Shown here piece by piece: positions 1,211 to 15,352 of a stretch of DNA of 64,000 bases. Below the pieces are notes generated by a model, which ran no database searches, was not told the DNA's origin, and worked only from the letters and a program-made list of their open reading frames with translations. The position numbers were made by a program, and so were the translations under genes. The number at the start of each line of letters is the position of its first letter. The stretch's first letter is position 1. The DNA lies in assembly GCA_038231135.1 (NCBI GenBank), contig JBBRLX010000017.1:1-64000 (forward strand), in the 5' to 3' direction. The stretch comes from Candidatus Eiseniibacteriota bacterium. GTDB lineage: Bacteria; Eisenbacteria; RBG-16-71-46.

Positions 1211-2393
1211 GGGAGTGTAACGTCTTCTGTGTAAGTGGCCATGAGGTAGTTTCCTCGAACGGAGGGTTCTCATGGCCAAGGATGACGAGCTGGACCAGAT
1301 GCTGGATCGGATGATCCAGGGCAAGACGCCAGAACAGGTGTTGGGCGCGGGCGGCCTGCTCAAGGATCTGACCAAGCGCCTCGTGGAGCGGATGCTGAAC
1401 GGCGAGCTGACGGAACACCTGGGCTACGCGCCGCATGCGCCCGAGGGGCGCGGCAGCGGTAACTCCCGCAACGGAACGACCTCGAAGCGGGTGTTGACCG
1501 AGAGCGGCGAGGTCGAGTTAGACGTGCCGCGCGACCGCGTCGGTGACTTCGAGCCGCAGGTAGTGAAGAAAGGTCAGCGCCGCCTGCCCGGGTTCGACGA
1601 CAAGGTGATCGCGCTGTATGCGCGCGGTCTGTCGACCCGCGACATTCAAGGACACCTGCAGGAGATCTACGGGGTCGAGGTATCGCCGTCGCTGATTTCG
1701 ACGGTCACGGATGCGGTGCTCGACGACGTGAGGGCATGGCAGGCACGGCCGCTCGATGCCAGCTATCCGATCCTGTACATGGACGCGATCCACTTGCGGG
1801 TGCGGGACGGTGGAACGGTGCAGATGCGCGCCGTGTACGTCGCGCTCGGCATCCGGATGGATGGCCACAAGGAACTGCTGGGCCTGTGGCTGGGCGAGCG
1901 CGAGGGTTCGAAGTTCTGGCTCAACGTGTTGACCGAGATCAGGAATCGCGGCGTGCAGGACGTGCTCGTCGCCTGTATCGACGGCCTGACGGGGTTCCCG
2001 GACGCAATCGCCACGGTATTTCCTCAGACCCAGGTGCAGTTGTGCATCGTGCACCTGGTCAGGAACTCGCTGAAGTACGTTGGCTGGAAGGACCGCAAGG
2101 CCGTCGCCCGCGACCTGCGGGCGATTTACACCGCACCGACTGCCGACGCGGCCGAGTTGGCGCTCGAGGGGTTTGACGAACAATGGACCGCGCGCTTCCC
2201 GTCGATCGCCAGGCTGTGGCGGGCGGCATGGCAGCACGTCATCCCGTTCTTCGCGTTCCCGGCGCCGATCCGCAAGGTGATCTACACGACCAATGCCATC
2301 GAATCGATCAATGCTTCGTTGCGAAGCGTCATCCACAAGCGCGGCGCGTTTCCCGATGGCGACGCGGTGCGCAAGGTGCTGTACCTCGCGATT
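1211..2393 (+). mobile_element. IS256-family insertion sequence, right end missing
   Basis: Left end GGGAGTGTAACGTCTTCTGTGTAA at 1211 resembles IS256-family termini; no matching right inverted repeat seen. Confidence 0.8.
1272..2393 (+). pseudogene. IS256 (Mutator) family DDE transposase, C-terminally truncated; ORF reads on out of frame to 2753
   Basis: Motifs NSRNG, VPRDR, LYARGLSTRDI, YMDA, ACIDGLTGF, QLCIVH, YTTNAIES, KVLYLAI; homology stops near 2393. Confidence 0.85.
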
Positions 2394-3240
2394 GCCGATC
2401 TCCGCGGGCACGGTGGAAGACGCCGCGCGGAGGTGGCTTTCGAATTACGTCCCGACGGTCCGCGGCGAGCGCGATCAGAGGCTCGCCGAACAGCGGGTTC
2501 GGGATTACCTGTTGCCGAACCTCGGGCATGCGCTGCTCCAGAAGGTATCGGCCGAGCATATTCGGTCCTACCGGCTGGTCTTGGAACGGTCGCACCTGTC
2601 CGTGCAAAGCGTGCGGCATGTGCTGTCGGATCTGCGGTGCTTGCTCAACTGGTGCGAGGATGCAGGGCTCTTGGATCGCTCGCCGTTTCCCCGGCGAGTG
2701 CTTCCCAAGATTCAAGAGCGTCCGCCAGACCGGTTGACGGACAGCGAAGTTGATCAAGTGTGCGGTTTGCCGGATCCATACGGCTTTCTTGCTCGGGTAC
2801 TGGTGGCAACGGGACTGCGCTGGGGTGAGCTCGTCCGCGCGACAATGACGGATGTGCACGGCGCGACGCTGACCGTTCACCACACCAAGTCCGGCAAGGT
2901 GCGCCGCGTGCCGCTGCCGCCGGCCGTCGTGGACGAGATGCGACTGCGGGTTGGGAAGCTCAGTCCGGTGCGCTACGCCGACGGATTCAATCTCTACGTT
3001 CGGCGGCGAACGGGCGTCGAGGGCTTTCACGCTCATCAGCTGCGGCACACATTCGCGTGCCGCTGGCTGGAAGCGGGTGGGTCGCTCGCGGCGCTGCAGG
3101 AAATCTTGGGTCATTCCTCGATCGTGACGACCCAGCGGTACGGGCGAATCGGTGAAGCGCATGTCCAAGCCGAAGCCGCGCGGATTCAGGGACGAAACGG
3201 CACACCAGACGGCACACCCATCTTGCGCCACTCCCGCTAA
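2392..3240 (+). pseudogene. Tyrosine integrase of element A, lacking about the first 50 aa
   Basis: Catalytic motifs TGLRWGEL, TKSGK, HQLRH, LGHSS, TTQRY; colinear with the 14232 integrase from LPISAGTVEDAA onward; no start codon or N-terminal domain. Confidence 0.85.
3197..3218 (+). repeat. Paired arm-type repeats of element A (ACGGCACACC x2, 12-bp period)
   Basis: Exact 10-mers at 3197-3206 and 3209-3218, at the position equivalent to the repeats in integrase B. Confidence 0.6.
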
Positions 3241-3255
3241 GTCGTGTAAAAGCAA

Positions 3256-3300
3256 CAGCGGAGAGGTGCGAGAGCGGCTGAATCGGGCGGTCTCGAAAAC
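3256..3300 (+). repeat. att site: 45-bp copy of CAGC plus the 5' half of tRNA-Ser(CGA)
   Basis: Identical to 15259-15303; identity ends just after the anticodon loop. Confidence 0.95.
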
Positions 3301-3366
3301 TGATTCGTGTCATGAACCTTGGAGTTCGCTCAAACCCCTCGAAGACATTGCGCGGCAACGAAGTCG

Positions 3367-3409
3367 GAAGAGCCCCATGAGGTTGGCGCCTCATGGGGCT
3401 CTTCGTTTT
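3367..3409 (+). terminator. Intrinsic terminator-like hairpin just inside the left att
   Basis: 16-bp perfect stem GAAGAGCCCCATGAGG/CCTCATGGGGCTCTTC followed by GTTTT. Confidence 0.7.
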
Positions 3410-3453
3410 CCGCGGACACGGACGGACACACGCGGGCAATAAAGGGCGCTGAG

Positions 3454-3473
3454 TCGGTAGCAATTCGGTAGCA
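3454..3473 (+). repeat. Left-end arm-type repeats of element B (TCGGTAGCAA / TCGGTAGCA)
   Basis: Same motif as the tandem pair at 15189-15210. Confidence 0.75.
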
Positions 3474-3637
3474 GGTGACCAACTCAGCCACAGTCTGTCA
3501 GCCGGACTTGGCAGATTCTGAATGGTCCGTGAATCAGGGACGCCGCTGGGCGGATGCGGGGTTTGAGGCAATGTTCCCGGGGAGCTAACCAGCGGCTCCG
3601 CGCGCTCGCCGACGCGCCCCGCGAACTGCAGGCCGAT

Positions 3638-3662
3638 TGCCATCGAGGAAGCGTCGGAAGAA
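3638..3662 (+). repeat. 25-bp direct repeat, copy 1
   Basis: TGCCATCGAGGAAGCGTCGGAAGAA; one mismatch to 4808-4832. Confidence 0.8.
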
Positions 3663-3670
3663 GGCACTCA

Positions 3671-4552
3671 TCAGCGCCCGCCTAGGAACACAGTCCTCCG
3701 AAGCATGTGGGTCGAACCGGCGATGGCGTTCAGGAAATAGATCCCGTTGCTGAGGGCGGCCCCATCCGAGCCATGGCCGCCCCAGTCGAGCGGGTGCACG
3801 CCGGCCGCCATCGTGCCGCTGAACACGGTCGCCACCCGCCGCCCACCTGCGTCGAACAGGGCGACGTCCACCCGCGCCGCGTTTGCGAGCGTGATCGCAA
3901 ACCGCGTTCTCTGCCGGAACGGATTGGGCATTGGCACTGAAAGCAACACGGACGCCAATGGCTGCCCCGGTACGCCGGTCGTCGCGTCGGGGGCATGATG
4001 ACCGAGATGCTGTTGCAGCAGCGCGAGGTCCATGCTCGTGACGATGCCGTCGCCGTCGAAGTCCGCCGTGGGATCCGCCGTGCCGAGCTTGGATTCGACG
4101 ATCGCCGCGTCGGTGTGATCCACCATGAGATCGCCGTTTTGATCGAACGACGCCACGGTGACGTATCTCAGGTAGATGCCCACGACGTCGACGAGAACGC
4201 TGTCTCCCGGACACACACCGCCACCGGCGAACGGAAATGCGGACGCAGTGCCGTAGTTACAGGGGCCAATGGAGGCGGTTCCGGCGGCATCCACGGTGTA
4301 GGGGTGGTTGCCGACGGCCGACAGGCGATAACCGGGACACGAACCGAGGTGGACGTTGACCGGGCCATCGCACCACAGACCGGCGTCGGCTCGACGCGTG
4401 ATCACGACGAACGAATCATCGCCAGCGGGGCAACTCACGATCCGCGGCGGAACAGTGCATTCGCCGGGATCCGGGATGCTTCCGCGGACCGGCGCAGCGA
4501 GGAGGAGCGCGAGAGTCGTCACCACACAGAGGGTCAGAATGGGTCGGTTCAT
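3671..4552 (-). CDS. Secreted protein with dockerin/EF-hand-like Ca-binding loops and a C-terminal FlgD Ig-like domain
   Basis: Signal peptide MNRPILTLCVV...; DQNGDLMVD and DFDGDGIVTSMD; PNPF...FDAGGRRVATV...WGG...GIYFL tail. Confidence 0.75.
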   Translation of the reverse strand: MNRPILTLCVVTTLALLLAAPVRGSIPDPGECTVPPRIVSCPAGDDSFVVITRRADAGLWCDGPVNVHLGSCPGYRLSAVGNHPYTVDAAGTASIGPCNYGTASAFPFAGGGVCPGDSVLVDVVGIYLRYVTVASFDQNGDLMVDHTDAAIVESKLGTADPTADFDGDGIVTSMDLALLQQHLGHHAPDATTGVPGQPLASVLLSVPMPNPFRQRTRFAITLANAARVDVALFDAGGRRVATVFSGTMAAGVHPLDWGGHGSDGAALSNGIYFLNAIAGSTHMLRRTVFLGGR

Positions 4553-4807
4553 GGTCAGACCTTCATTACACCGTAAGTCCCGTCCGGTTCCGAGTGACGT
4601 GGCGACGCATTCACAGCCGCCGTTGAGAGGGCCGCCGAGGGAGCCCGGCAACTACTCGATCCAGAAGCTAACAGGCGAAGATGCGGCCCTGGTGAATTCG
4701 CCAGCATCCGAGCGGCGGCAGCGGCGCCTGTTGCCCCCGTCTTAGTCCGCTACTCCCGGTGTCGAAGTGCCGCCGCGACTCGCGCGGGTGCACGCGCTCC
4801 ATAACGC

Positions 4808-4832
4808 TGCCATCGAGGAAGCGTTGGAAGAA
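4808..4832 (+). repeat. 25-bp direct repeat, copy 2
   Basis: TGCCATCGAGGAAGCGTTGGAAGAA. Confidence 0.8.
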
Positions 4833-4958
4833 TAGGCCAGCCGATGGAGTGGCCGCCGCGCGGTGGTTTCGCCGCTGTGTAAAGGTCCCGGCCACGGGCC
4901 GGTGGTGCCAAGTGGTAGGAGTTGAACGCTGCGACCGCGGGACTCTCCCTCGTTTGTG

Positions 4959-5972
4959 TCAACGGTAATGCGTTTTTAACGCGCCCCAGCTGCTGGGTCG
5001 GGCCTTTGTGGCGCCGTCGAAGGCGAACTTCTGAATGCGGTTGTTCGAAAGATCGGCAACGTAGATGAATCCCGCGGTGTCTACAGCCACGCCCGTGGGA
5101 AAGTGGAACTGGCCATCGCCATCGCCGGTCGTTCCGAACTGCGTCAGGAACTGACCCTGGGGAGTGTAGACCTGCACGAAGTCATGCAGGCCGTCGCCGG
5201 CGAGTACGTGCCCGTTGCCGTCATTGGCAACGCCGCCGGGCCCAAAAATGCAGCATCCAAACGAACTCAACAACGCCCCGTCCGACGAATAGGTCTGAAC
5301 CTGGTGATGCACGAACTCGGCGGAAATGAGGTTCCCGTTGGGTGTCCACTGCACGAATGACGGCCCGAAGATCGAGGGACCGTCGCCCGTAGTGCACCCA
5401 TCGGGACCAATGTCGCCCCACGTCTTGAGGTATCCACCCTCGGAGTCGAATTTCTGGATGCGCCCATCGTGGTCGGATACGTAGACGTATCCGTCCGGGT
5501 CGACGGCAATCCCGCTCGTAGTCTCGAGCTCGCCGGGACATGACCCGAAATGACAGCTCCATTTCTTGATGAACGTCCCGTCATTCGTGAATTTCTGAAT
5601 GCAACAGTTCGGTGTGCGCTCGGCGGTGTAGACCGATCCGTCGGGTCCAACCGCCACGCCGATCAGGCCGCCGAAACCGAATTGGCCATCTCCAGAACCG
5701 GGTGAGCCCCACATTCGGACAAAGTCGCCATTCGACGTGAACACCGAGATGCGCGAGTTCACGTTCTCCGCGACGTAGAGATTGTCCGAATGATCCAAGA
5801 CAATCTGTTCCGGCCCATTCAACTGGCCTGGACCGGCCCCCTGGGTTCCCCACTTTGCGACAAAGGTCACGTTCGTGGCCTTCGGCGCTGCCTCGGAACC
5901 CGCAGCTGTGCAAGCCAAGATCGAAGCCATCTGAACCAGCAGCGCGTACTTACGATATGCCAAGCTGGTCAT
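4959..5972 (-). CDS. Secreted NHL-repeat beta-propeller protein
   Basis: Repeated P.G.AVD..G..YV.D..N.RIQKF units; GGAGG RBS; C-terminal SSWGALKTHYR. Confidence 0.85.
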   Translation of the reverse strand: MTSLAYRKYALLVQMASILACTAAGSEAAPKATNVTFVAKWGTQGAGPGQLNGPEQIVLDHSDNLYVAENVNSRISVFTSNGDFVRMWGSPGSGDGQFGFGGLIGVAVGPDGSVYTAERTPNCCIQKFTNDGTFIKKWSCHFGSCPGELETTSGIAVDPDGYVYVSDHDGRIQKFDSEGGYLKTWGDIGPDGCTTGDGPSIFGPSFVQWTPNGNLISAEFVHHQVQTYSSDGALLSSFGCCIFGPGGVANDGNGHVLAGDGLHDFVQVYTPQGQFLTQFGTTGDGDGQFHFPTGVAVDTAGFIYVADLSNNRIQKFAFDGATKARPSSWGALKTHYR

Positions 5973-6301
5973 ACACAGGCCTCCCGTGGTGTCGAAGATG
6001 CGTACAATTCTAGCAGCAATCGGGGTTTCGGGTAACCCGGTGATTCTGTCAACCTGGCCTTAGAGCCCTCGCCCCCAAGGCTAACGGCATCCCGGCCCTG
6101 GGTCCGAGGCCTTACCGAAAAGGTGGCCCGGTATTCAGAGGCTGGCAGTCATGCAACCAACGACTTCCGCCGCTCTGTTCAGAGTCCCGCAAGGACCTCG
6201 TTTTAGGACGCTCTTGACGCTTGCGTGCTCAGGGCTTGGCGGTGCTATCTTCGGACCCCTCCTGAGAGGCCTCCGAACATTGACCTGTTTCGAACGGAAG
6301 G

Positions 6302-8332
6302 GTGCGCACTTTGGCTAGCGTACTTCAGAAGAAACTCAAAGAGGCGCTCTCAAACATCCGCAGCGGAGCTCTTCGGATCCCGAGTTTTCAGCGCGAGTTT
6401 GTTTGGAACACGTCTCAGGTGAAGGCACTTCTCAACTCAATTCGCAGCGGCATCCCGATCGGGACGGTGACCACCTGGGAGCAGGCCCAAGAGAGCCCTG
6501 ACGAACTCTTTGAAGAGTTCTTTTCCAAGAAGGCATCGGGCAAGAAGGCGCTCTACCGCCCAGAAGTCGAGAACGCAGTGGCGTTTGAGAAGGTTGACGC
6601 AATGCCCACACCGGACAGAGTTCAGGCAGGCGTCATCGACGGTAGACAGCGCCTTACGTCGCTCCTCATGTGCTTCGGTGGCGTCACTACTGCAGACGGC
6701 AGAAGCCCACACGCGGGCCTATGGTACTACGACCTGTCGAAGCCGCTTGATGGCGACGAGTGCCCTTTCGACTTCGAGAAACTGTCGGTGATTGAGCAGG
6801 ACTATCCCTCCATGAGTTCGTGGATCCGCAAGGCCCGGTTTCCGTTATGGCTTTGGGAGCGGCAGGATGTGTTCATTCGTCAGATTGTGAATCCAGCACA
6901 CTACGAAAACGGAAACGTGCCGGCCGACTGCGCTGATCGACTTCAGCGGTTGAGCCAGCTGAACTCCATTTTGAGCGGTTTCGACATCGCATTCTACATC
7001 ATCGACAAGGCAACTGATCTCAGCACCGTGTGCGAGGTATTCGAGCTCTTGAACACGATGGGCACAAAGGTCAGCGTCTTCGACATCATCGCAGCGAAAC
7101 ACTTCGGATCCTCCGAAGCGCGCTTTGACCTTCGAGAACGCGCGAAGGCAGTTTTTGACGAGGACTTGGCCACGCCAAAGGCGTTCCCGTTGCTCTCGAA
7201 GTGGTTTGATGAGAACAATGGGAATGGCGGTAAGGTCGTCTGCAACGTCATAACGGGCGCCTTCCTTAACACCCCCGACAACCTTTCTTCAGAAGGGGGG
7301 CGCAAGTCCGCCGAACTCGGAGGCATAAGTAGTTTCAAGGGAAAGGACCTGATCTCCACGCCCCTGGGGTTCTACTCCGACGTCTTCGACCGCAGGATGG
7401 ACGGCACCGATGTGCCAGGGTTCCCTGGGCTTACGCGCCTTGGTGCAGCTATTGAGGATTTCGCTTCCGCGAGCCGCGGAATAACCTCGAGAGTGATGTG
7501 TCCCTACCCGATCCTTCTGCCCCTGTACCTCTCACTGAGGTATGACCAGGGCCTGGGCGGCGACTTCCCGGTGTCGGCGATCGATGATTCGTTCAGAGTG
7601 TTCTTCTGGCGTACTAGTCTTCTTGGTCGCTATGACCAGGGCTTCCTCACGGGTGCTGTAAGGGACAGGGATATTCTCGCCCAGTTCCTTCGTGGCAACG
7701 CAGCCACCTACGCCACCGATAAGATTGCCTGGTGGAATGAGCTAGAAAAGATCCTCAGACAGATGGACTTGGGCAGCGGGCGGGTCGGGCTCGCTGCTAA
7801 GAAGGACCTCTTCCTGGCAACCGACCTTAGGGGTGCGCGTTCGAAGACGGCAGAGGCGCTACTCTTCGTCAGTTTGCCAAGAGATTTGCACACCCGAGCC
7901 GAACTGCTCCCATACCGTGACGAGGACATTCACCTCCACCACGTCTTCCCTCGCAAATGGGTCAACGACAACTGCGTCGGCGAGAAAGAGCAACTCAAAT
8001 GCTTTGCCGCTCTAGTACCCCTGAGTTCGGAATCAAATGTAGCGTGGCGGTCACAATCCCCCGAGCAACAGCTTGCTACCTGGCACAGTTCGGGCATGAC
8101 TTGGTCGTCGCTCCAACAATTAATGGAATCTGTGCTCATCAATGAATCCAGCTTTGCGTTGCTCGTTGACGCCGCCGGTCAGACACCTGCCGCTCGATTC
8201 AAGGGTTTTATCGACAAACGCGCGCAACACATGGCCGAGGTTCTTGCGGAATTATGGGGATGCAGGGATTTGACTAATGGTTCCGACGTCTGGAGGACCC
8301 ACTTCCGCACGGTTGCTTCGAATCGGCCCTGA
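6302..8332 (+). CDS. GmrSD-like DUF262 + HNH (DUF1524-like) protein; candidate modification-dependent restriction/defence enzyme
   Basis: IPSFQREFVW, IDGRQRLTSL, FELLNTMG in the N-terminal half; HLHHVFP...LSSESN near the C-terminus; GGAAGG RBS. Confidence 0.8.
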   Translation: MRTLASVLQKKLKEALSNIRSGALRIPSFQREFVWNTSQVKALLNSIRSGIPIGTVTTWEQAQESPDELFEEFFSKKASGKKALYRPEVENAVAFEKVDAMPTPDRVQAGVIDGRQRLTSLLMCFGGVTTADGRSPHAGLWYYDLSKPLDGDECPFDFEKLSVIEQDYPSMSSWIRKARFPLWLWERQDVFIRQIVNPAHYENGNVPADCADRLQRLSQLNSILSGFDIAFYIIDKATDLSTVCEVFELLNTMGTKVSVFDIIAAKHFGSSEARFDLRERAKAVFDEDLATPKAFPLLSKWFDENNGNGGKVVCNVITGAFLNTPDNLSSEGGRKSAELGGISSFKGKDLISTPLGFYSDVFDRRMDGTDVPGFPGLTRLGAAIEDFASASRGITSRVMCPYPILLPLYLSLRYDQGLGGDFPVSAIDDSFRVFFWRTSLLGRYDQGFLTGAVRDRDILAQFLRGNAATYATDKIAWWNELEKILRQMDLGSGRVGLAAKKDLFLATDLRGARSKTAEALLFVSLPRDLHTRAELLPYRDEDIHLHHVFPRKWVNDNCVGEKEQLKCFAALVPLSSESNVAWRSQSPEQQLATWHSSGMTWSSLQQLMESVLINESSFALLVDAAGQTPAARFKGFIDKRAQHMAEVLAELWGCRDLTNGSDVWRTHFRTVASNRP

Positions 8333-8410
8333 CCGCCAGTCGCTGACTGGTTGCCAGCTAGGGATTCAGAATCCGCTCAGGGCTGATAGCCTTCGTACTG
8401 ATTCTTGGAC

Positions 8411-8449
8411 CGAGGAGCCCCGGCGTATCTATCCCGCCGGGGCTCCTCG
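8411..8449. terminator. Hairpin downstream of the DUF262 gene
   Basis: 15-bp perfect stem CGAGGAGCCCCGGCG/CGCCGGGGCTCCTCG. Confidence 0.6.
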
Positions 8450-8658
8450 CAACTAGGATCATGAGTGTTTCCAAACCGGGTCGTTCCGGCACATGCGCTA
8501 CTGTGGGCCCGTAAGAAGACGTCGCATCAAGTTACCGGCGCGCCGAGCCTGACGGTTTCTGCACACACCCTTGAAATGGCCTTGGGCGGAAACTCCAGCC
8601 GAGTCCCTAAGAGCCATGCGACGAATTCGGACCCATGGCATACCCCGCGGGGCGCTCG

Positions 8659-9020
8659 CTACGGGTTCGGCCTGTTGATTCCCCGACGGGCTCTATCCTC
8701 CTTCAGGGCTGACAATCCCGATTCGGTTGCGGACCACCAGAGGGTCGCCGCGTAGGTCAATTGGATCGGGTCCTCAACCTCCCGGTCTTTGAATTGATCA
8801 ATGGGATCGAATCGCTGAGGGTCAGTCTCATAGCGGTAGCACTGCATCCAGCCTTTTGTCTGCAGGTCGCGCAGGACCTGAATCATTTCCCCAACGGGAG
8901 GAACCGGGACGTCATCGTCCCAATGACCTCTCTGATCGATTGCAATGACTCATAGTCGTGTCCTGCAATAGCGATCAGCTCCATTTCCAGCGTCGTGAAT
9001 GGATATCGGCCATCACTCAT
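8659..9020 (-). pseudogene. Possible small gene split by a frameshift
   Basis: MSDGRYPFTTLEMELIAIAGHDYESLQSIREVIG... (ATG 9020) overlaps 8886-8659 (MIQVLRDLQTKGW...) in another frame. Confidence 0.3.
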
Positions 9021-9176
9021 AGTCGCCCCCCCCCGAGCAGCCATTCTTTGCCGCCTCCCGCATCACCGACTCATCGCCCAACCTGGTTGCATCGTCACGA
9101 TGCTCGCGTGTCCGAGAAGCCGCTGCAAGCGCGTCCGCCCGGGGTCTTGGGCACATTCCTACTTGTACAACTATCC

Positions 9177-10070
9177 TCACCACCAATGAAGTGAGTAGAG
9201 GCTCCGCGCATCCTCCTGGTCGCCGGCCGAGGAGAAGACGAAGGTTGGGTTGGTTGTGGCCTCGTGACAGAAGCCTTCCCAGTTGAGGCGGCCGCTCGTG
9301 TTGCTGTAGTAGCGCTCGAAACGAAAGACCAGCCAATCGCGCAGGGTGGTGCGCCGCTCAGGCTCGGATAGGTGGGGTCTCGGGTCGCAAATCGACACAT
9401 TGACTCGCTTCTTCCACTTCCGGAACTCCACGGGCAGGACCTCCCGGCTGAGAAGCGCCTTTGCAGCAGCCCGCCCAAGGTGATCACTCTTCACTCTTCC
9501 TCGCGTGAACCGCTCAGCGATTCCCTGGATCACGACCGCCGCGATGATTGGCCCCAGGTTCGGGATGCGCCCCCGTCGCACCTTGACGGCGCTCCGCAGC
9601 CTGGCCGGGGCCGCTGCCGTCCCGGGCCGAGAACCTCGGGCCATTCCCATGAGCAACAATGCCGACGGAACGGTAAACGCCCCATAGGAAACTAGGAAGC
9701 GACGGCGCTTCAACTCACGCCGAAGGGCCCGGCCGGCGACCTCTTCCACGAGGATGGCGTGATTCGGGTCCGAACTGCCCCTTAGCAGCGCGTTTCTGAT
9801 CTTCGCTAGCTCCGCCTCGACGTCAGCATCTGTTGCCGGTCGTGCCCGGAGCAGCCACTCGGCGCCGAGCACCGCCCAAAGAACCATCTCTGGGTCCAGG
9901 CCTAGGCGGTGGCCGTCATGCAGAAGGGCGACCATTTTCTCTTGGTCTATCTCGAGGCCCCCCTTCCACTGACCGGCGACCTCCGAGCGCCAAGCGCGGA
10001 CCAGCCGAGTCGCGTCCGCCACCCTGGACACCAGGGGGGAGGTTTCGGGGACTTCCGCCGAAGAATCCAC
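9177..10070 (-). CDS. Hypothetical protein, divergent from the xis/primase operon
   Basis: 297-aa ORF with protein-like composition and AGGAG upstream of GTG. Confidence 0.55.
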   Translation of the reverse strand: MDSSAEVPETSPLVSRVADATRLVRAWRSEVAGQWKGGLEIDQEKMVALLHDGHRLGLDPEMVLWAVLGAEWLLRARPATDADVEAELAKIRNALLRGSSDPNHAILVEEVAGRALRRELKRRRFLVSYGAFTVPSALLLMGMARGSRPGTAAAPARLRSAVKVRRGRIPNLGPIIAAVVIQGIAERFTRGRVKSDHLGRAAAKALLSREVLPVEFRKWKKRVNVSICDPRPHLSEPERRTTLRDWLVFRFERYYSNTSGRLNWEGFCHEATTNPTFVFSSAGDQEDARSLYSLHWW

Positions 10071-10158
10071 TCCTAGTCTCTCCTAATCCCAGTAGACAAG
10101 GCAACGCGCGCGTAGCCGAGGAAGGATACGCCTCACGCGGCACAGGAGAAACCCACCA

Positions 10159-10362
10159 ATGGATAGGCTGTTTTCAGTCCAAGAGGCCGCTGAGCGCCTC
10201 GGAGTGAGCTTCTGGACGGTGTATCGCATGGCGCGAAGCGGGCAACTCGCCAGCGTGCGCATCGGCCGGCGCCGGTTATTTGCGGTGGCGGACCTCGAGG
10301 AGCTGGTTCGGACGACTCGCCGAGCGGCAACGATGCCGGAACAGTCCGCGACTCAGGAATAG
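10159..10362 (+). CDS. Excisionase-family HTH DNA-binding protein
   Basis: FSVQEAAERLGVSFWTVYRMARSGQLASVRIGRRRL pattern; AGGAG RBS. Confidence 0.85.
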   Translation: MDRLFSVQEAAERLGVSFWTVYRMARSGQLASVRIGRRRLFAVADLEELVRTTRRAATMPEQSATQE

Positions 10363-10454
10363 ACGGCTAGCCCGTTATTCGGGCATCGCGATGTCAGTGG
10401 AGACCGCAATTCAGTGCGACCGAGGGGCCGAGATCCGAGCCCAGCAGCTAGCTC

Positions 10455-10544
10455 TTGGAATAGCGAGTTTCCAAAGGGCCCCGCGCTCGGGGGTGAAACG
10501 GAAACAATTCATTTGTTGATCGTGGAAACGGCTATTTCCACGAT
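10455..10544. promoter_or_regulatory. Two TGGAA-N8-TTCCA palindromes (candidate operators)
   Basis: TTGGAAtagcgagtTTCCAA at 10455-10474 and ATCGTGGAAAcggctaTTTCCACGAT at 10519-10544. Confidence 0.5.
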
Positions 10545-10564
10545 TGAGAGAGGAGCGGCGCCAT

Positions 10565-10885
10565 ATGCGGCGAGATGTGCAGAGGCGGCGAAAAATCCTG
10601 GAGTTGATTGCCGGACGATCAAGAGAGCGACGGACCACCTCATTTCGCACGCTGGTGCGAGAACTGAGTGTGTCCGAGGAATCCGCCTGCGAATACCTCA
10701 AGCGGCTGTGGAGGGAGCGCTTGCTCAAGAGTCCGGATCGCCGCGCCGGTTTCAACTTCCGCCTTGAGGCCGGCGAGAGCCTCCGGGACCTGCGGTTCAC
10801 GATTCACAAGCGGGGCCTTATGCGCCTCAAGTGGTGGAAGGTCGAGGAGGAACAGGACAACGAGGAGGAGGGGTTCTTCTCGTGA
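10565..10885 (+). CDS. Small basic protein, possible winged-helix DNA-binding protein
   Basis: GAGAGGAG RBS before ATG; ILELIA...FRTLVRELSVSEESACEYLKRLWRERLL is helix-turn-helix-like. Confidence 0.55.
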   Translation: MRRDVQRRRKILELIAGRSRERRTTSFRTLVRELSVSEESACEYLKRLWRERLLKSPDRRAGFNFRLEAGESLRDLRFTIHKRGLMRLKWWKVEEEQDNEEEGFFS

Positions 10886-10910
10886 CCTCTTCCCGTCTCG
10901 AAGGTCGCCC

Positions 10911-13418
10911 GTGAACGCACCGAAGTCCGTCCACGAGGCCCAAGCTCGCGGCTGGGCCTGCGTTCCGGTGCGGGGCAACAAGCACCCGTTCTTCCCTTGG
11001 AAGCGGTACCAGGGGGAGGTCCCGCGAAGCGAACAGCTGGACGAATGGGCGGAGGAGTATCGGCCCGAAGCCTGGGCGGTGGTTACGGGTTCCGTCAGTA
11101 GTCTCGTGGTGCTCGACTTCGATGGGGAGAAGGGTCGAAGCCTCCTGGAGCAACTCGGCCTCAACCCCCACGTCCGCACCCCGAGCGGCGGCTTCCACTG
11201 GTACGGGGTCCACGATGGCCGAGCCATCCGTACGCGGAACGGGAAGGCCGCGCGTGAGCTTCGAGAGCAATACCCTGGCCTGGACGTCCGGGCAGACGGA
11301 GGCTACGCGGTCTTTTTCGGGCGCGTTGTCACCGGGGAGTACAAGTCGCTTCGGTCCCCTGGGCCCGACCGGCTTGAAATCCTCCCCGCATCGCTCCGGG
11401 AGTTCTTGGTCGGACCCGCGCGAAAGCCGAAGGCTCATGAGAGGCAGCCCGTGAATTCAACGGACGATCTTCTCCGGAAGGCCCTCGAGCGTGCGGAGTG
11501 GGACGGCCGCAATAATTCGGGATTCCGGTTTGCCTGCCAGATGCGGGACACCAACATGTCTTTCTCCGATGCGCGGGACAACATGCTCGCATTCCAGGCG
11601 CGCGGCCATGCAACCAATCAGAAGGAAGTTGCCGAGCCGTATACCGAGTCTGAGGCCATCGCATCGCTCGAGCAGGCCTACGGTCGGGCACCCTGCGAGC
11701 CGAAGCTGACGAGGGCCGAGTTGCCGTTGACCGACTACGGCAACGCCCAGCGTCTGACCCGCGGACATGGTGTGGACCTCCGTTACTCGCATGCGTGGGG
11801 GGCTTGGCTCACCTGGGACGGACGTCGTTGGCAGCGCGACGCAACGAACGAAGCCATGCGGCGCGCGAAGGCGACGGTCAGAGCGATCTACGAAGAGGCG
11901 GCCAACGAGCCCGACGTCGACACGCGCAAGGCGGTTGCCAACCATGCTCGAAAATCGGAGGCCGAGCCACGCCTCAGACACATGGTGGAGCTGGCGAAGA
12001 GCGAGCCGGGGATTCCCGTCACACCCGAAGAGTTCGACTCCGACCCGTGGCTTCTAACGTGTCTGAACGGCACCGTTGAGTTGAGAACCGGCCGGATCCG
12101 CGAGCACCGCCGCGACGACCTCATCACAAAACTTTCGCCAACCGAATTCGAGTCCGAAGCAACGGATGAGGATTGGGAGCGCGTCCTCTCGGAAGCTTGC
12201 GGGGGAAGCCCCGATCTCATCGCGTTTCTGGCCCGGGCGCTGGGCTACTCCATTACCGGCGACACCAGCGAGGAAAAGCTCTTCTTCATTCATGGGCCGG
12301 CCGCCAGCGGAAAGTCGACGGTCATCGAGGCCGTCAAGGCGGCTCTCGGCGACTATGCAGTTACGACCGACTTCGAGACGTTTCTGAAACGCAACCAGGT
12401 CGGATGCCCACGGAACGACCTCGCCCGGTTGGCAGGTGCACGGCTAGTTACCTCGCTGGAGGTCGAACACGGTAAGCGGCTGGCCGATGGGCTCGTCAAA
12501 CAACTGACCGGCGGCGACACAGTCACCGCACGCTTCCTGCACCGCGAGTTCTTCGAGTTCAGGCCACAGATGAAGCTGTGGCTCGCGGCGAATCACGCCC
12601 CGAAGGTTCAGGCAGATGACGAGGCGATGTGGCGCCGGATTGTGCGGATCCCCTTCGATCACGTCATCCCGGAACAGCAGCGAGACCCGGGGCTGAAGTT
12701 GAAGCTCCGAAACCCAGGTGCGGCGCGCCGCGCGATTCTGGGCTGGCTGGTCAAGGGATGCTTGGCCTGGCAGGAGGAAGGGTTGTCCGTCCCTCCAATG
12801 GTCAAGCAAGCGACTGCTGCTTACCGGGATGAGATGGATCCCCTGCAGGACTTCTTCGGGGAATACTGCATTCTCGAGCCGGGTGCGACGACTCCATCCG
12901 CCTCCCTGTGGACCGCATACCAAAGCTGGGCCAAGGATGCAGGAGAGCGATGGCCGCTCAATCGGAAGAGGTTCGCGGACGCACTAATAGCGCACGAACT
13001 TGTGGACACAAAATTTCGCGGACAACGGGCCTGGCGCGGAATTCGGCTCGGGGACCCGCAAGGTCGAGGCGACGAGGGGTCCAAGATCGAACCGCATGCC
13101 GTCCCTGTGACGCCGGGCAGGACGCATGGGACGGATCGGGACGCGACTTCTACCCATTCTCCCTCTTCGATTCCTGCTCGTGAGGAGAACCTCGAAACTC
13201 ACGTCCCGTTCCGTCCTGTGTCCGCGGCCCAGCTTCCTGACCTCGCCGAATGGGACAAGGTTATGAATCCACGGCTCGAAGAAGGATCCGGCACCGAGGA
13301 ATGCCAGGCGGATTCGAATGCGACCCCGCCCAATCGTGCCGAAAGGCCCGAGGCAGGATTGGAGGCTGATTCAGGGGACTTCGGACCAGGCGAGGAGAAG
13401 GGAGGGTCCAGCCAGTGA
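10911..13418 (+). CDS. Prim-Pol primase fused to a P4/D5-type SF3 helicase (replication protein)
   Basis: LVVLDFDG, RTPSGGFHWY, GLDVRADGGY (Prim-Pol); LTDYGNAQR, WDGRRW (D5_N); GPAASGKST Walker A, VKQLTGGD, AANHAP. Confidence 0.9.
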   Translation: MNAPKSVHEAQARGWACVPVRGNKHPFFPWKRYQGEVPRSEQLDEWAEEYRPEAWAVVTGSVSSLVVLDFDGEKGRSLLEQLGLNPHVRTPSGGFHWYGVHDGRAIRTRNGKAARELREQYPGLDVRADGGYAVFFGRVVTGEYKSLRSPGPDRLEILPASLREFLVGPARKPKAHERQPVNSTDDLLRKALERAEWDGRNNSGFRFACQMRDTNMSFSDARDNMLAFQARGHATNQKEVAEPYTESEAIASLEQAYGRAPCEPKLTRAELPLTDYGNAQRLTRGHGVDLRYSHAWGAWLTWDGRRWQRDATNEAMRRAKATVRAIYEEAANEPDVDTRKAVANHARKSEAEPRLRHMVELAKSEPGIPVTPEEFDSDPWLLTCLNGTVELRTGRIREHRRDDLITKLSPTEFESEATDEDWERVLSEACGGSPDLIAFLARALGYSITGDTSEEKLFFIHGPAASGKSTVIEAVKAALGDYAVTTDFETFLKRNQVGCPRNDLARLAGARLVTSLEVEHGKRLADGLVKQLTGGDTVTARFLHREFFEFRPQMKLWLAANHAPKVQADDEAMWRRIVRIPFDHVIPEQQRDPGLKLKLRNPGAARRAILGWLVKGCLAWQEEGLSVPPMVKQATAAYRDEMDPLQDFFGEYCILEPGATTPSASLWTAYQSWAKDAGERWPLNRKRFADALIAHELVDTKFRGQRAWRGIRLGDPQGRGDEGSKIEPHAVPVTPGRTHGTDRDATSTHSPSSIPAREENLETHVPFRPVSAAQLPDLAEWDKVMNPRLEEGSGTEECQADSNATPPNRAERPEAGLEADSGDFGPGEEKGGSSQ

Positions 13419-14035
13419 AAGTGGCCCTCTATCTTCGAGTCTCCACCATCGACCAGGACCCCGAGTCCCAAGGCCGTGAGGTGCGGCAATTCGTCGCGGC
13501 GCATGGCTGGGAAACAATCGAGACCTATCAGGACGTCGGCGTTTCGGGTGCTCGTGCCCGCCGTCCCGCGCTCGATCAACTCATCAAGGACGCCTGGCAC
13601 GGGCGTTTCGAGGCCGTGGTGGTCTGGGATCTGTCTCGGATGGCGCGAAGCACGCTCAATGCGCTCCAACTGCTCCAGGAGTTCGAGCAGATGAACGTCC
13701 GGCTGATTGCCGTGAAACAGACCTTCGACACCAATACGCCACTCGGGCGCGCGTTCTTCACCCTGGCCGCGATGTTCGCCGAGCTTGAGCGCTCCATCCT
13801 GATTGAACGCGTCCGCGCCGGCATGGCGCGCGCGAAGGCGGAGGGTAAGCGTATCGGGCGCCCGGTACGCCGCGTGGACCTCGAGCAGCTGCGCCGGCTC
13901 CGCGCCGAGGGTCTTTCGATTCGCCAGATTGCCCGTCGCATGGGGACACCCAGCTCCACGGTCGCGAAACGCCTGCAGCTGCTCGCGCCCTCGATCGCGG
14001 GCCCTGCGACAAGCGGGGGTGGCGATGGAGCCTGA
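13415..14035 (+). CDS. Small serine recombinase (resolvase/invertase) with C-terminal HTH
   Basis: YLRVST catalytic Ser, D.GVSGA, LSRMARS, ERVRAG...GRP. Confidence 0.9.
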   Translation: MKVALYLRVSTIDQDPESQGREVRQFVAAHGWETIETYQDVGVSGARARRPALDQLIKDAWHGRFEAVVVWDLSRMARSTLNALQLLQEFEQMNVRLIAVKQTFDTNTPLGRAFFTLAAMFAELERSILIERVRAGMARAKAEGKRIGRPVRRVDLEQLRRLRAEGLSIRQIARRMGTPSSTVAKRLQLLAPSIAGPATSGGGDGA

Positions 14036-14231
14036 GCTCCGCGCCGCGATCAGCCCTCTCGAGCAGTTCCTGACTCTTCGCGAAGTCGCGGCGCTGCTCC
14101 GGATGGACGAGCGCACCATCCGGCGCTGGACCGTCTCGAAAGGGTTTCCTTGCGTGCGATTGGGGACACGCCTACGGTTCTGCCAGCGCGATGTCCTTCG
14201 ATGGGTTTCGGCGAGGAAGGAGGGCCGGTAG
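14025..14231 (+). CDS. Excisionase-family HTH protein
   Basis: LTLREVAALLRMDERTIRRW...FPCVRLG...RF; directly upstream of int. Confidence 0.8.
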   Translation: MEPELRAAISPLEQFLTLREVAALLRMDERTIRRWTVSKGFPCVRLGTRLRFCQRDVLRWVSARKEGR

Positions 14232-15233
14232 TTGCCGAAGCTCTTGAAGGGAATGTTTAAGCGCGGCAGAAGCTTCTATTACCGCGTGCGAGATAATTAT
14301 GGCGATCGGTGGATTTCCCTGGGGCCCGATTATGACGAGGCCTGCCGGCGCCTGCGGGAACTGCGTCGGGGGAGTATTCCGGTAAGTCGGGAAACCGTGG
14401 AAGACGCTGCGGGAAAATGGCTGGAGGGTTACGTGGCGACGGCGCGAAACGAGAAAGGAGTGGAATTGGCGCGTCAGCGCGTGCGCATGTATTTGGTGCC
14501 GTTTTTCAAGTACCGGCCACTGGCGGCAGTCACCACGGAAAATGTCCGACAGTACCGGCTATTTCTGGAGCGACAACGAATCTCCATTCAAACCGTCGCT
14601 CATCTCCTGTCCGATGCCCGATGTTTTTTCAATTGGTGCGAGGCGGAGGGGTTAATCACAAAATCGCCCGCACCGAGGAAATTGCTTCCGCGGATTCAGG
14701 AAAGGCCTCCGGACCGGCTAACGAATGAGGAAGTGGCCGCAGTGCTCAAAATCCCCGAACCATACCGCTTCGTGATTCAGTTCGGCCTCGAGACCGGTTT
14801 GCGGTGGGGCGAGCTGACGCGCGCCCTAAGCAGAGACGTTCACGACGGGGTGCTCGTGGTAAGCCGGACCAAGTCGGGGAAGCTGCGGCGGGTGCCGCTG
14901 TCACCCGAGATGTGTAAGGAGCTGAGACTGCGGGTCGGTCGTCTCGTGCCGATGCGGGACTCCACCGGGTTCACGCGCCAGGTGCGGCGGTATTCGGGCG
15001 TGAAGCGGTTTCATCCTCACCAGCTCCGTCACACCTTCGCCTGCCGCTGGATCGAAAATGGTGGAAACCTCGCTGCGCTGCAGGTCGTGCTCGGTCATTC
15101 CTCGATCGTGACCACGCAACGGTATGCGAGGCTCACCGACGACCACGTCCGAGCGGAGGCCGAGCGCGTTTTCGCGAAAGCGGGAAATTCGGTAGCAATT
15201 TCGGTAGCAACCGCTCCAGCAGACCTTGCGTGA
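14232..15233 (+). CDS. Tyrosine integrase of element B (intact)
   Basis: N-terminal beta-rich arm-binding-like segment; TGLRWGEL, TKSGK, HQLRH, LGHSS, TTQRY. Confidence 0.92.
   Translation: MPKLLKGMFKRGRSFYYRVRDNYGDRWISLGPDYDEACRRLRELRRGSIPVSRETVEDAAGKWLEGYVATARNEKGVELARQRVRMYLVPFFKYRPLAAVTTENVRQYRLFLERQRISIQTVAHLLSDARCFFNWCEAEGLITKSPAPRKLLPRIQERPPDRLTNEEVAAVLKIPEPYRFVIQFGLETGLRWGELTRALSRDVHDGVLVVSRTKSGKLRRVPLSPEMCKELRLRVGRLVPMRDSTGFTRQVRRYSGVKRFHPHQLRHTFACRWIENGGNLAALQVVLGHSSIVTTQRYARLTDDHVRAEAERVFAKAGNSVAISVATAPADLA
15189..15210 (+). repeat. Right-end arm-type repeats of element B (TCGGTAGCAA x2, 12-bp period), inside the int 3' end
   Basis: Exact 10-mers at 15189-15198 and 15201-15210. 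Confidence 0.75.
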
Positions 15234-15256
15234 AATGGCGTAAGTCGTTATAAGCT
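15226..15256 (+). promoter_or_regulatory. Candidate element-borne promoter for tRNA-Ser(CGA)
   Basis: TTGCGT-N17-TATAAG (or TAAGCT 2 nt later) ending just before the tRNA. Confidence 0.45.
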
Positions 15257-15262
15257 CTCAGC

Positions 15263-15352
15263 GGAGAGGTGCGAGAGCGGCTGAATCGGGCGGTCTCGAA
15301 AACCGTTAAGGGCGCAAGCCCTTCGAGGGTTCGAATCCCTCCCTCTCCGCCA
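15263..15352 (+). tRNA. tRNA-Ser(CGA)
   Basis: GGAGAGG/CCTCTCC acceptor stem, CTCGAAA anticodon loop, long variable arm, GGTTCGAATCC, GCCA end. Confidence 0.97.

Follow-up and report, generated by a model that had tools for sequence, protein, structure and literature searches.

Islands at transfer RNA (tRNA) genes that leave a 5' fragment of the target gene (tDNA) were reportedly described by Zhao & Williams in 2002 (J Bacteriol 184:859; cited in PMC6563490 and PMC1635311), under a title said to imply a reversal of target orientation. In the Islander collection, 159 of 3919 islands (4%) carried a 5' fragment and 125 tandems were recorded (PMC4383910), archaeal 5'-distal integrations, such as CalSub-E1 in tRNA-Ser, were considerably rarer than the 3' ones (PMC6563490), and the upstream islands at Klebsiella arg2 belonged to the integrase clade I.d (bioRxiv 2020.11.02.365908), as far as the accessible parts of these sources go. 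The present work concerns the first 64,000 nucleotides (the window) of contig JBBRLX010000017.1, further C17, in the Candidatus Eiseniibacteriota assembly GCA_038231135.1 (4.09 Mb, 97 contigs, 93% complete), where two tandem elements, A and B, stand before the gene of tRNA-Ser(CGA). Very probably, both entered by means of tyrosine integrases of the lambda type, with the crossover in the anticodon loop of this tRNA, and each brought a 5' half with a predicted promoter in place of the usual 3' half. The preliminary description of the locus had called it the strongest candidate for an undescribed system in the window, a claim that finds no support, because 5' capture was already described in the sources cited above, and tandem arrays in Islander too, so far as their accessible text extends. 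The 5' replacement itself is known but rare, and what is added here is a family-wide comparison.

The arrangement is seen in an exact direct repeat of 45 bp (3256-3300 = 15259-15303), the longest in the window, against 15-20 bp for the longest direct repeats in 20 triplet shuffles. Each copy holds a 4-nt leader and nt 1-41 of the tRNA, whose anticodon loop occupies nt 33-39, and the copies begin 15 and 25 nt past the stops of two co-oriented tyrosine integrases, A and B, that are 57% identical. The whole tRNA-Ser(CGA) was called by ARAGORN at 15263-15352 only, at the right copy of the block, and it is the sole Ser(CGA) gene found in the assembly; the commonest serine codon in the five host genes counted was TCG (60 of 129). 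The repeat, its spacing of about 15-25 nt from the integrase stops and the continuation of only the right copy into a full tRNA had all been reported in the preliminary description and were reproduced exactly. Element B is an intact satellite-like island of 12.0 kb (3301-15303), with a GC content of 61% compared with 71% in the host. Its two ends pair independently of the tRNA repeat, since the same pair of arm-type 9-mers occurs at both (3454-3473 and 15189-15209), and elsewhere in the genome this exact type was found only at two other element-like ends, on contigs C6 and C4.

The crossover point was approached by comparison of 18 Ser(CGA) 5' fragments, in which the identity mostly breaks at the end of the anticodon loop, nt 39. 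Each of the last two loop bases was kept in 17 fragments, the next base was free (G in five, T in five, A in four, C in four, with A in 38 of 38 whole genes), and beyond it CCG partly returned, as a 7-bp overlap in the anticodon loop predicts; in the lambda-type scheme, such an overlap lies between the stem-based core sites. The arm-to-anticodon distances, obtained for the 35 of 65 copies with a detectable pair and distance, clustered at 41-45, 53-57, 67, 76-82, 88-94, 99-102 and 109-113 bp with few outside these bands, i.e., in steps of about 11-12 bp, and this clustering was common to all three integration layouts distinguished below. The left end, composed of a hairpin, periodic GGAC repeats and an arm pair, followed 11 of the 18 Ser fragments with enough sequence, and it was also seen behind 4 of 37 whole tRNA genes, at 3'-type elements. 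Between the 5' type and the co-oriented 3' type no inversion would thus be needed: both would recombine in one orientation, and only the half carried would differ. In the hairpin, 12 of 16 pairs had two-sided changes over 15 left ends, and its paired cells and score were reached by 0 of 500 shuffles, with a structure taken from the window's own copy, which favours it. The displaced half with the left end was also considered as a tRNA mimic, which found no support, the stretch from loop to hairpin being not conserved. The motif TAAGTCGT may be an IHF-like (integration host factor) site, and three genes of the HU/IHF family are present in the genome.

For the family survey, integrase matches were pooled from 61 related genomes and from the genome_contigs and viral_contigs sets, with the retention of those of at least 38% identity that reached the catalytic tyrosine (143, de-duplicated to 117); the layout, judged within 1.7 kb downstream of the integrase, was classed in 91 and not in 26. 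The survey was seeded from this window and the relatives are not independent, the shares describing the sample, and none of the conclusions depends on the unpublished genome G038; by hand count, 49 of 78 records with the nearest integrases were named Candidatus Eisenbacteria. Among the classed integrases, 56 ran toward the 5' end of a tRNA or a 5' half in their own orientation, 23 were convergent on a tRNA 3' end, which is the usual layout, and 12 were followed by a co-oriented 3' fragment. Within this family, 5' capture thus seems to be more frequent than either other layout. By layout, the 5' type was found at six tRNAs, Ser(CGA), Ser(TGA), Arg(CCT), Cys, Lys(TTT) and Val(GAC), and a displaced 5' half was seen in 18 of the 56 cases, at Ser(CGA), Arg(CCT) and Cys, being located directly after the integrase in 12, farther upstream in four, and at 45 kb and 77 kb in the genomes G020 and G029, respectively. 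Two to four Ser 5' halves were stacked in the relatives G020, G045, G010 and G002; in G020 and G029 the tRNA-proximal integrase was the intact one, and nearly matching arm pairs bounded the 45-kb unit of the former and the 77-kb unit of the latter. The viral contig L234 contained a terminase, an integrase, a promoter-like motif, an Arg(CCT) 5' half and more phage genes, with no whole tRNA, and so represents an unintegrated phage site of the 5'-capture kind. Together with the arm repeats of B, the stacked halves and L234 bear out the earlier proposal of a tandem array growing upstream by replacement of the 5' half. A 3.3-kb unit in G020 with arm repeats matching at both ends had no match to integrase B or A, as was also the case for short units in G004 and G045, and both decay and in-trans mobility fit these integrase-less units.

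In the quick unrooted trees of 79 classed copies of at least 200 residues, the 5' label changed 12 times, with at least five changes forced by well-supported branches, and a single 5'-type clade was rejected by the approximately unbiased (AU) test (p 1.5e-5; LG+G4, two long rows removed); being unrooted, these trees give no direction to the layout switches. The integrase phylogeny and the comparison of the locus in related genomes, both recommended in the preliminary description, gave three layouts, a 5' type that does not form one clade and stacked Ser halves in four relatives.

Compared with the 5'-fragment islands of Islander, this family shares the tyrosine integrase, the tRNA target, the 5' fragment displaced upstream with the gene restored, the anticodon-centred (A) site and the recognised tandem arrays, but differs in the share of the 5' type, which is 4% there versus 56 of 91 by layout, or 18 of 91 strictly, in the present integrases (over six tRNA types by layout, three by the strict count), and in the replacement of the promoter, which is unmentioned in the accessible text of PMC4383910. 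By the Islander definition, B has the whole tDNA and the fragment on one replicon in the same orientation, with the 5' fragment upstream, and a PF00589 integrase (by PF00589 alone) inside an interval of 12.0 kb, within the range of 2-200 kb; the A site is assigned by comparison only, from the break after nt 39 in the Ser fragments, while the block of the window reaches nt 41. Of the integrase and fragment expected for each tandem member B has both, and A has an integrase remnant, its far fragment lying beyond the contig start. The arg2 islands of Klebsiella likewise include an integrase subclade inserting upstream of a tRNA, but at a site of the acceptor 5' strand, D-stem and D-loop, according to the available portion of that preprint, whereas here the site reaches the anticodon loop, with several targets and stacked arrays. 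The archaeal 5'-distal cases are similar in recombination at the tRNA 5' region, but are isolated examples in the part of the source at hand. The reversal of orientation reportedly implied by the title of Zhao & Williams 2002 contrasts with a 5' type and one 3' type of the same orientation, which differ only in the half carried. Relatives of the elements could already be present in the Islander tables.

A 5'-replacing element must supply a promoter or use read-through, because the tRNA is cut from its own promoter. Promoter-like motifs precede both the displaced half and the working tRNA (Table 1), and a sigma-70 score of at least 8 was obtained at 18 of 36 adjacent sites of the 5' type, against 1 of 10 sites for one 3' type, 0 of 19 for the other, and 6 of 46 host tRNA calls; 200 shuffles of the promoter comparison averaged 4.0 and did not exceed 12. 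At tRNA-Met, the phage sites of the convergent layout had hairpins in place of the motif, and in several Arg and Lys cases of the 5' type there was no space for a promoter, so that these may rely on read-through. The promoter-like motif goes with 5' capture. A promoter-like motif with a structured-looking stretch, perhaps a small RNA or leader, was also observed downstream of tadA (G000 C6:82380-82500).

The history of the locus was followed by the position of tadA. Of the ten outgroup genomes of the same class that had a tadA match, seven had tRNA-Ser(CGA) at most 100 bp from tadA (the anticodon unchecked in G053); the exceptions were G052 (7.8 kb), G056 (3.2 kb) and G054, which has Ser(GGA) at tadA. 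In the window's order, six genomes had both on a single contig, and in all six they were apart, by 1.9, 11, 35, 51, 68 and 108 kb. A TTG at -36 to -41, a range widened after the first pass, preceded 27 of 27 whole copies from the order or the genome_contigs records and 16 of 18 fragments, and none of eight outgroup copies; this promoter may be element-derived or host-captured. Few genes were shared across the tadA-tRNA interval (e.g., 4/55, 4/73, 4/64), but few were also shared in the flanks (4/16, 0/12, 4/12, 2/16), which makes this test of accretion weak. A joint reading is offered tentatively, as possible rather than probable: the integrase family would switch freely among three att layouts, and its 5'-capturers would run the transcription of tRNA-Ser(CGA) across the order, where an ancient insertion split the tRNA from tadA, the element-derived promoter persists even without an integrase, and the site, a gene trap that grows upstream and reaches up to 100 kb, also takes integrase-less units in trans.

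Several points weigh against the insertion of A and B by 5' capture as proposed here. The identity in the window reaches nt 41, 2 nt beyond the loop, so that the crossover is not pinned by this locus alone; the promoter score is ad hoc, devised after the motif was seen, with half of the 5'-type sites below it, and strict promoter and terminator scans were negative at both window sites. An arm-binding domain was not found by Pfam in 17 of 17 integrases, and the profile match to lambda Int was weak (from position 23, E 7.5e-6). For B, neither a circular junction nor an empty site was seen: the Logan contigs of runs X1-X3 contained neither the 15303-3301 nor the 3300-15304 joint, but they break at the repeat and are uninformative, and the metagenome scan with the 45-mer returned a single locus, from an unrelated organism, where a whole tRNA immediately follows tadA. 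A displaced half was not seen in 38 of the 56 5'-type calls, which could carry a whole tRNA, and together with the left-end layout common to the 5' halves and the whole tRNAs of 3'-type elements (4/37) this would suit an attP that carries the whole gene, as in ordinary tRNA-bearing islands, with a later loss of the 3' half from the left copy. Such a history is nevertheless improbable, as the fragments stop sharply at the loop in many genomes and not at random points, no whole distal copy was found upstream in the 56 cases, though the available sequence was often short, and L234 has the 5' half only.

The order of insertion is unreadable from the structure. The later entry of A into the left junction of an older B, by the same mechanism, would give an identical sequence, and it agrees with the placement of the two integrases in different subclades with different arm repeats; however, it is A that has decayed while B is whole, the integrase next to the tRNA is the intact one in G020 and G029, and on the presumed C6-C17 join the GC content at third codon positions (GC3) reaches its minimum near the tRNA, which leaves this order rather unlikely. 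The earlier suggestion that B is the newest element and the half at 3260 was once supplied by A is likely and favoured by the decay of A, but cannot be proved by the structure. An erroneous join of the 45-bp repeat, which has four genomic copies, could be suspected from the break of the Logan contigs at both copies and from 51 bp common to C2 and the A junction, and yet it is hardly credible, since the ends of B are paired by arm repeats independent of this repeat, the depth over B matches that over its right flank (X1, about 11; X2, 31-33; both runs are possibly, not certainly, from the source sample), and the layout recurs in other genomes. The contigs of region A had a flat depth of 24.5-24.7 in X2 versus 31-33 for B, which, for a possible source run, was not used as evidence.

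By the preferred 5'-capture reading, each insertion would place the host 3' half behind a promoter and 5' half brought by the element and shift the previous promoter and 5' half upstream, where the hairpin in the new left end would terminate the transcript of the displaced half; the array would lengthen in the upstream direction, its newest element always adjoining the tRNA. Excision and copying of B would fall to its Xis-like and primase genes, and its transfer to a helper phage, which is invoked because no capsid, terminase or relaxase gene was found in B among the top Pfam and PHROG matches of the ORFs (open reading frames) scanned; the 68-aa Xis-like gene had a weak secondary terS match only.

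Toward the tRNA, B has a co-oriented run of HTH_17, a 113-aa ORF, Prim-Pol/D5 primase-helicase, resolvase, HTH_17 and integrase (Table 1). Six catalytic residues of integrase B (R191, K214, H263, R266, H289, Y298) were invariant in 17 of 17 aligned integrases, and in 11 of 24 other loci the integrase was immediately preceded by a homologue of the Xis-like gene. The GmrSD-domain protein matched PADLOC HEC-05 (E 1.6e-20) by its N-terminal part only, and the 297-aa ORF had no match in Pfam, PADLOC, PHROG or Atlas. With phage-inducible chromosomal islands (PICI) and their minimalist variant (PICMI), B shares the integrase, AlpA/Xis-like regulator, primase-replicase, size of about 12 kb and defence-like cargo, but in B no capsid or small terminase was found, an extra resolvase is present, the integrase is co-oriented at the end of the replication operon and no helper is known, in comparison with the accessible text of PMC10085698 and PMC10803314. 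Thus, of the PICI core components (at least 4 of 5), B has the integrase, the regulator and the primase-replicase, and lacks the capsid(-modifying) gene and/or small terminase; PICMI lie next to fis in Vibrionaceae, and the target of B is tRNA-Ser(CGA). By its gene content B would work like a phage satellite, outside PICI and PICMI by membership features.

Table 1. Features of elements A and B and of the tRNA-Ser(CGA) site, in window coordinates.
Feature	Position	Strand	Basis
IS256-family element, 3' end lost; transposase ORF from 1272	1211..2393	+	PF00872, E 8e-122
Integrase A, tyrosine recombinase without start codon and N-terminal ~49 residues	2395..3240	+	PF00589
Element A right-end arm-type repeat pair, period 12 (putative role)	3197..3218	+	direct repeat
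Promoter-like motif before displaced half: TTG hexamer, 18 nt, TA hexamer	3223..3252	+	ad hoc score 9.5
Left block copy: displaced tRNA-Ser(CGA) 5' half, nt 1-41, A/B junction	3256..3300	+	sequence repeat
Left-end hairpin, then short T run; predicted terminator of displaced half	3367..3404	+	z -6.4
Left arm: GGAC repeats, 10-11 bp period (predicted Xis sites), and arm-type pair 3454-3473	3414..3473	+	layout and alignment
Cargo: secreted protein with dockerin-like and FlgD Ig-like domains	3671..4651	-	PF13860, PF00404
Cargo: NHL beta-propeller protein	4959..5972	-	PF01436
Cargo: GmrSD-domain protein, likely anti-phage defence	6302..8332	+	PF03235, E 7e-26
297-aa ORF, divergent from replication operon	9177..10070	-	family not found
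AlpA/Xis-like HTH_17 regulator	10159..10362	+	PF12728; phrog_66
113-aa ORF	10544..10885	+	no convincing family (Pfam, PADLOC, PHROG)
Prim-Pol / D5 primase-helicase	10926..13418	+	PF09250, PF08706; phrog_1156, E 5e-141
Serine resolvase	13415..14035	+	PF00239
Xis-like HTH_17 gene, predicted directionality factor	14025..14231	+	PF12728; phrog_66
Integrase B, intact tyrosine recombinase	14232..15233	+	PF00589
Right-end arm-type repeat pair, 9-mer as in left arm	15189..15209	+	sequence
Promoter-like motif before working tRNA: TTG hexamer, 17 nt, TA hexamer	15226..15254	+	ad hoc score 10.5
Right block copy	15259..15303	+	sequence repeat
Whole tRNA-Ser(CGA); 5' half probably from element B, 3' half from host	15263..15352	+	ARAGORN

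Element A is a broken remnant with a likely inactive integrase, and its far end is not visible, as the window begins at the contig start. The alignment of integrase A starts at residue 50 of integrase B, and integrase A is fused to the 3'-truncated IS256, another genomic copy of which runs on with a different 3' sequence from about 2393; the junction was bridged by one contig in X1 and one in X2. Inside or beside A there are a low-GC orphan RHS-like C-terminal toxin domain and a likely immunity gene (172-660 and 630-986, + strand), with an Atlas lead of high confidence to polymorphic toxin clusters (Tox-HNH-EHHH on 43% of members), and a repeat at 1-141 that recurs at the start of C36.

The end of C6, the contig carrying tadA, has another decayed integrase plus a B-type left end, from which C6 probably leads into C17, giving the array more than two members. 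Two further Ser(CGA) 5' halves, each followed by a B-type left end and with no Ser tRNA alongside, occur on C2 and C14, and being far from the Ser tRNA they are either rearranged array pieces or secondary-site insertions. On C2 there are two stacked units with FlgD/kelch cargo adjoining IS66 (L027:10403-10639 and L027 about 13120-13245, both on the - strand), surroundings by which C2 was rejected as the home of the native left junction; on C14 the orphan half and left end follow a DUF4032 gene (L029:10222-10330, + strand), and this contig is unlikely in the same role, with tadA placed on C6 by synteny. Elsewhere in the genome, a B-type left-end arm pair with identical 9-mers downstream of tRNA-Arg(CCG) (G000 C4:89040) and an A-type one downstream of tRNA-Thr(TGT) (G000 C15:14109) may mark further elements of the family, and a 13-kb element with an integrase 57% identical (L032:2041-15529, same genome) is located at tRNA-Glu(TTC) in the usual convergent layout, with an unusually long 3' block of 60 bp.

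Among the surveyed contigs, L111:16250-17574, L066 and L071 have a tRNA-Ser(CGA) that is preceded by a motif of the 5' type and followed by a left end of the 3' type, and such a two-sided tRNA is a possible intermediate for switching halves. The viral contigs L225, L229-L231, L233, L236 and L238, with a family integrase and a convergent tRNA-Met site plus hairpin, are likely temperate phages of Eisenbacteria or their kin. In 20 copies of the 5' type (L153, L176, L183, L197, L208 and others) small genes were placed between the integrase stop and the arm repeats, a gap that is a possible hot spot for cargo inside attP. A role of 5' capture in sparing the operon genes located downstream fits in part, as Ser(TGA) and Ser(CGA) agree and Arg(CCT), Cys and Lys do not clearly; L041, a 3'-type case within a Ser(TGA) operon, runs counter to it.

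In narrow phrase searches of the literature, covering few subscription papers and no supplements, no paper was found on a family dominated by 5' capture or on promoter hand-over; those on promoter supply at a tRNA attP gave nothing relevant beyond PMC6563490, and none of the papers listed by those combining Eisenbacteria with integrases or islands named Eisenbacteria. The 5' capture has so far been treated as a rare oddity, and island finders or curators scanning only downstream of the tRNAs would overlook such arrays. As one family combines 5' capture with the two 3' layouts, and often uses them at a single tRNA type, the way in which attP sites acquire either half of a target gene can be tested directly. 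The family also indicates a route by which mobile elements could control the promoter of the host tRNA for the commonest serine codon of the five host genes counted.

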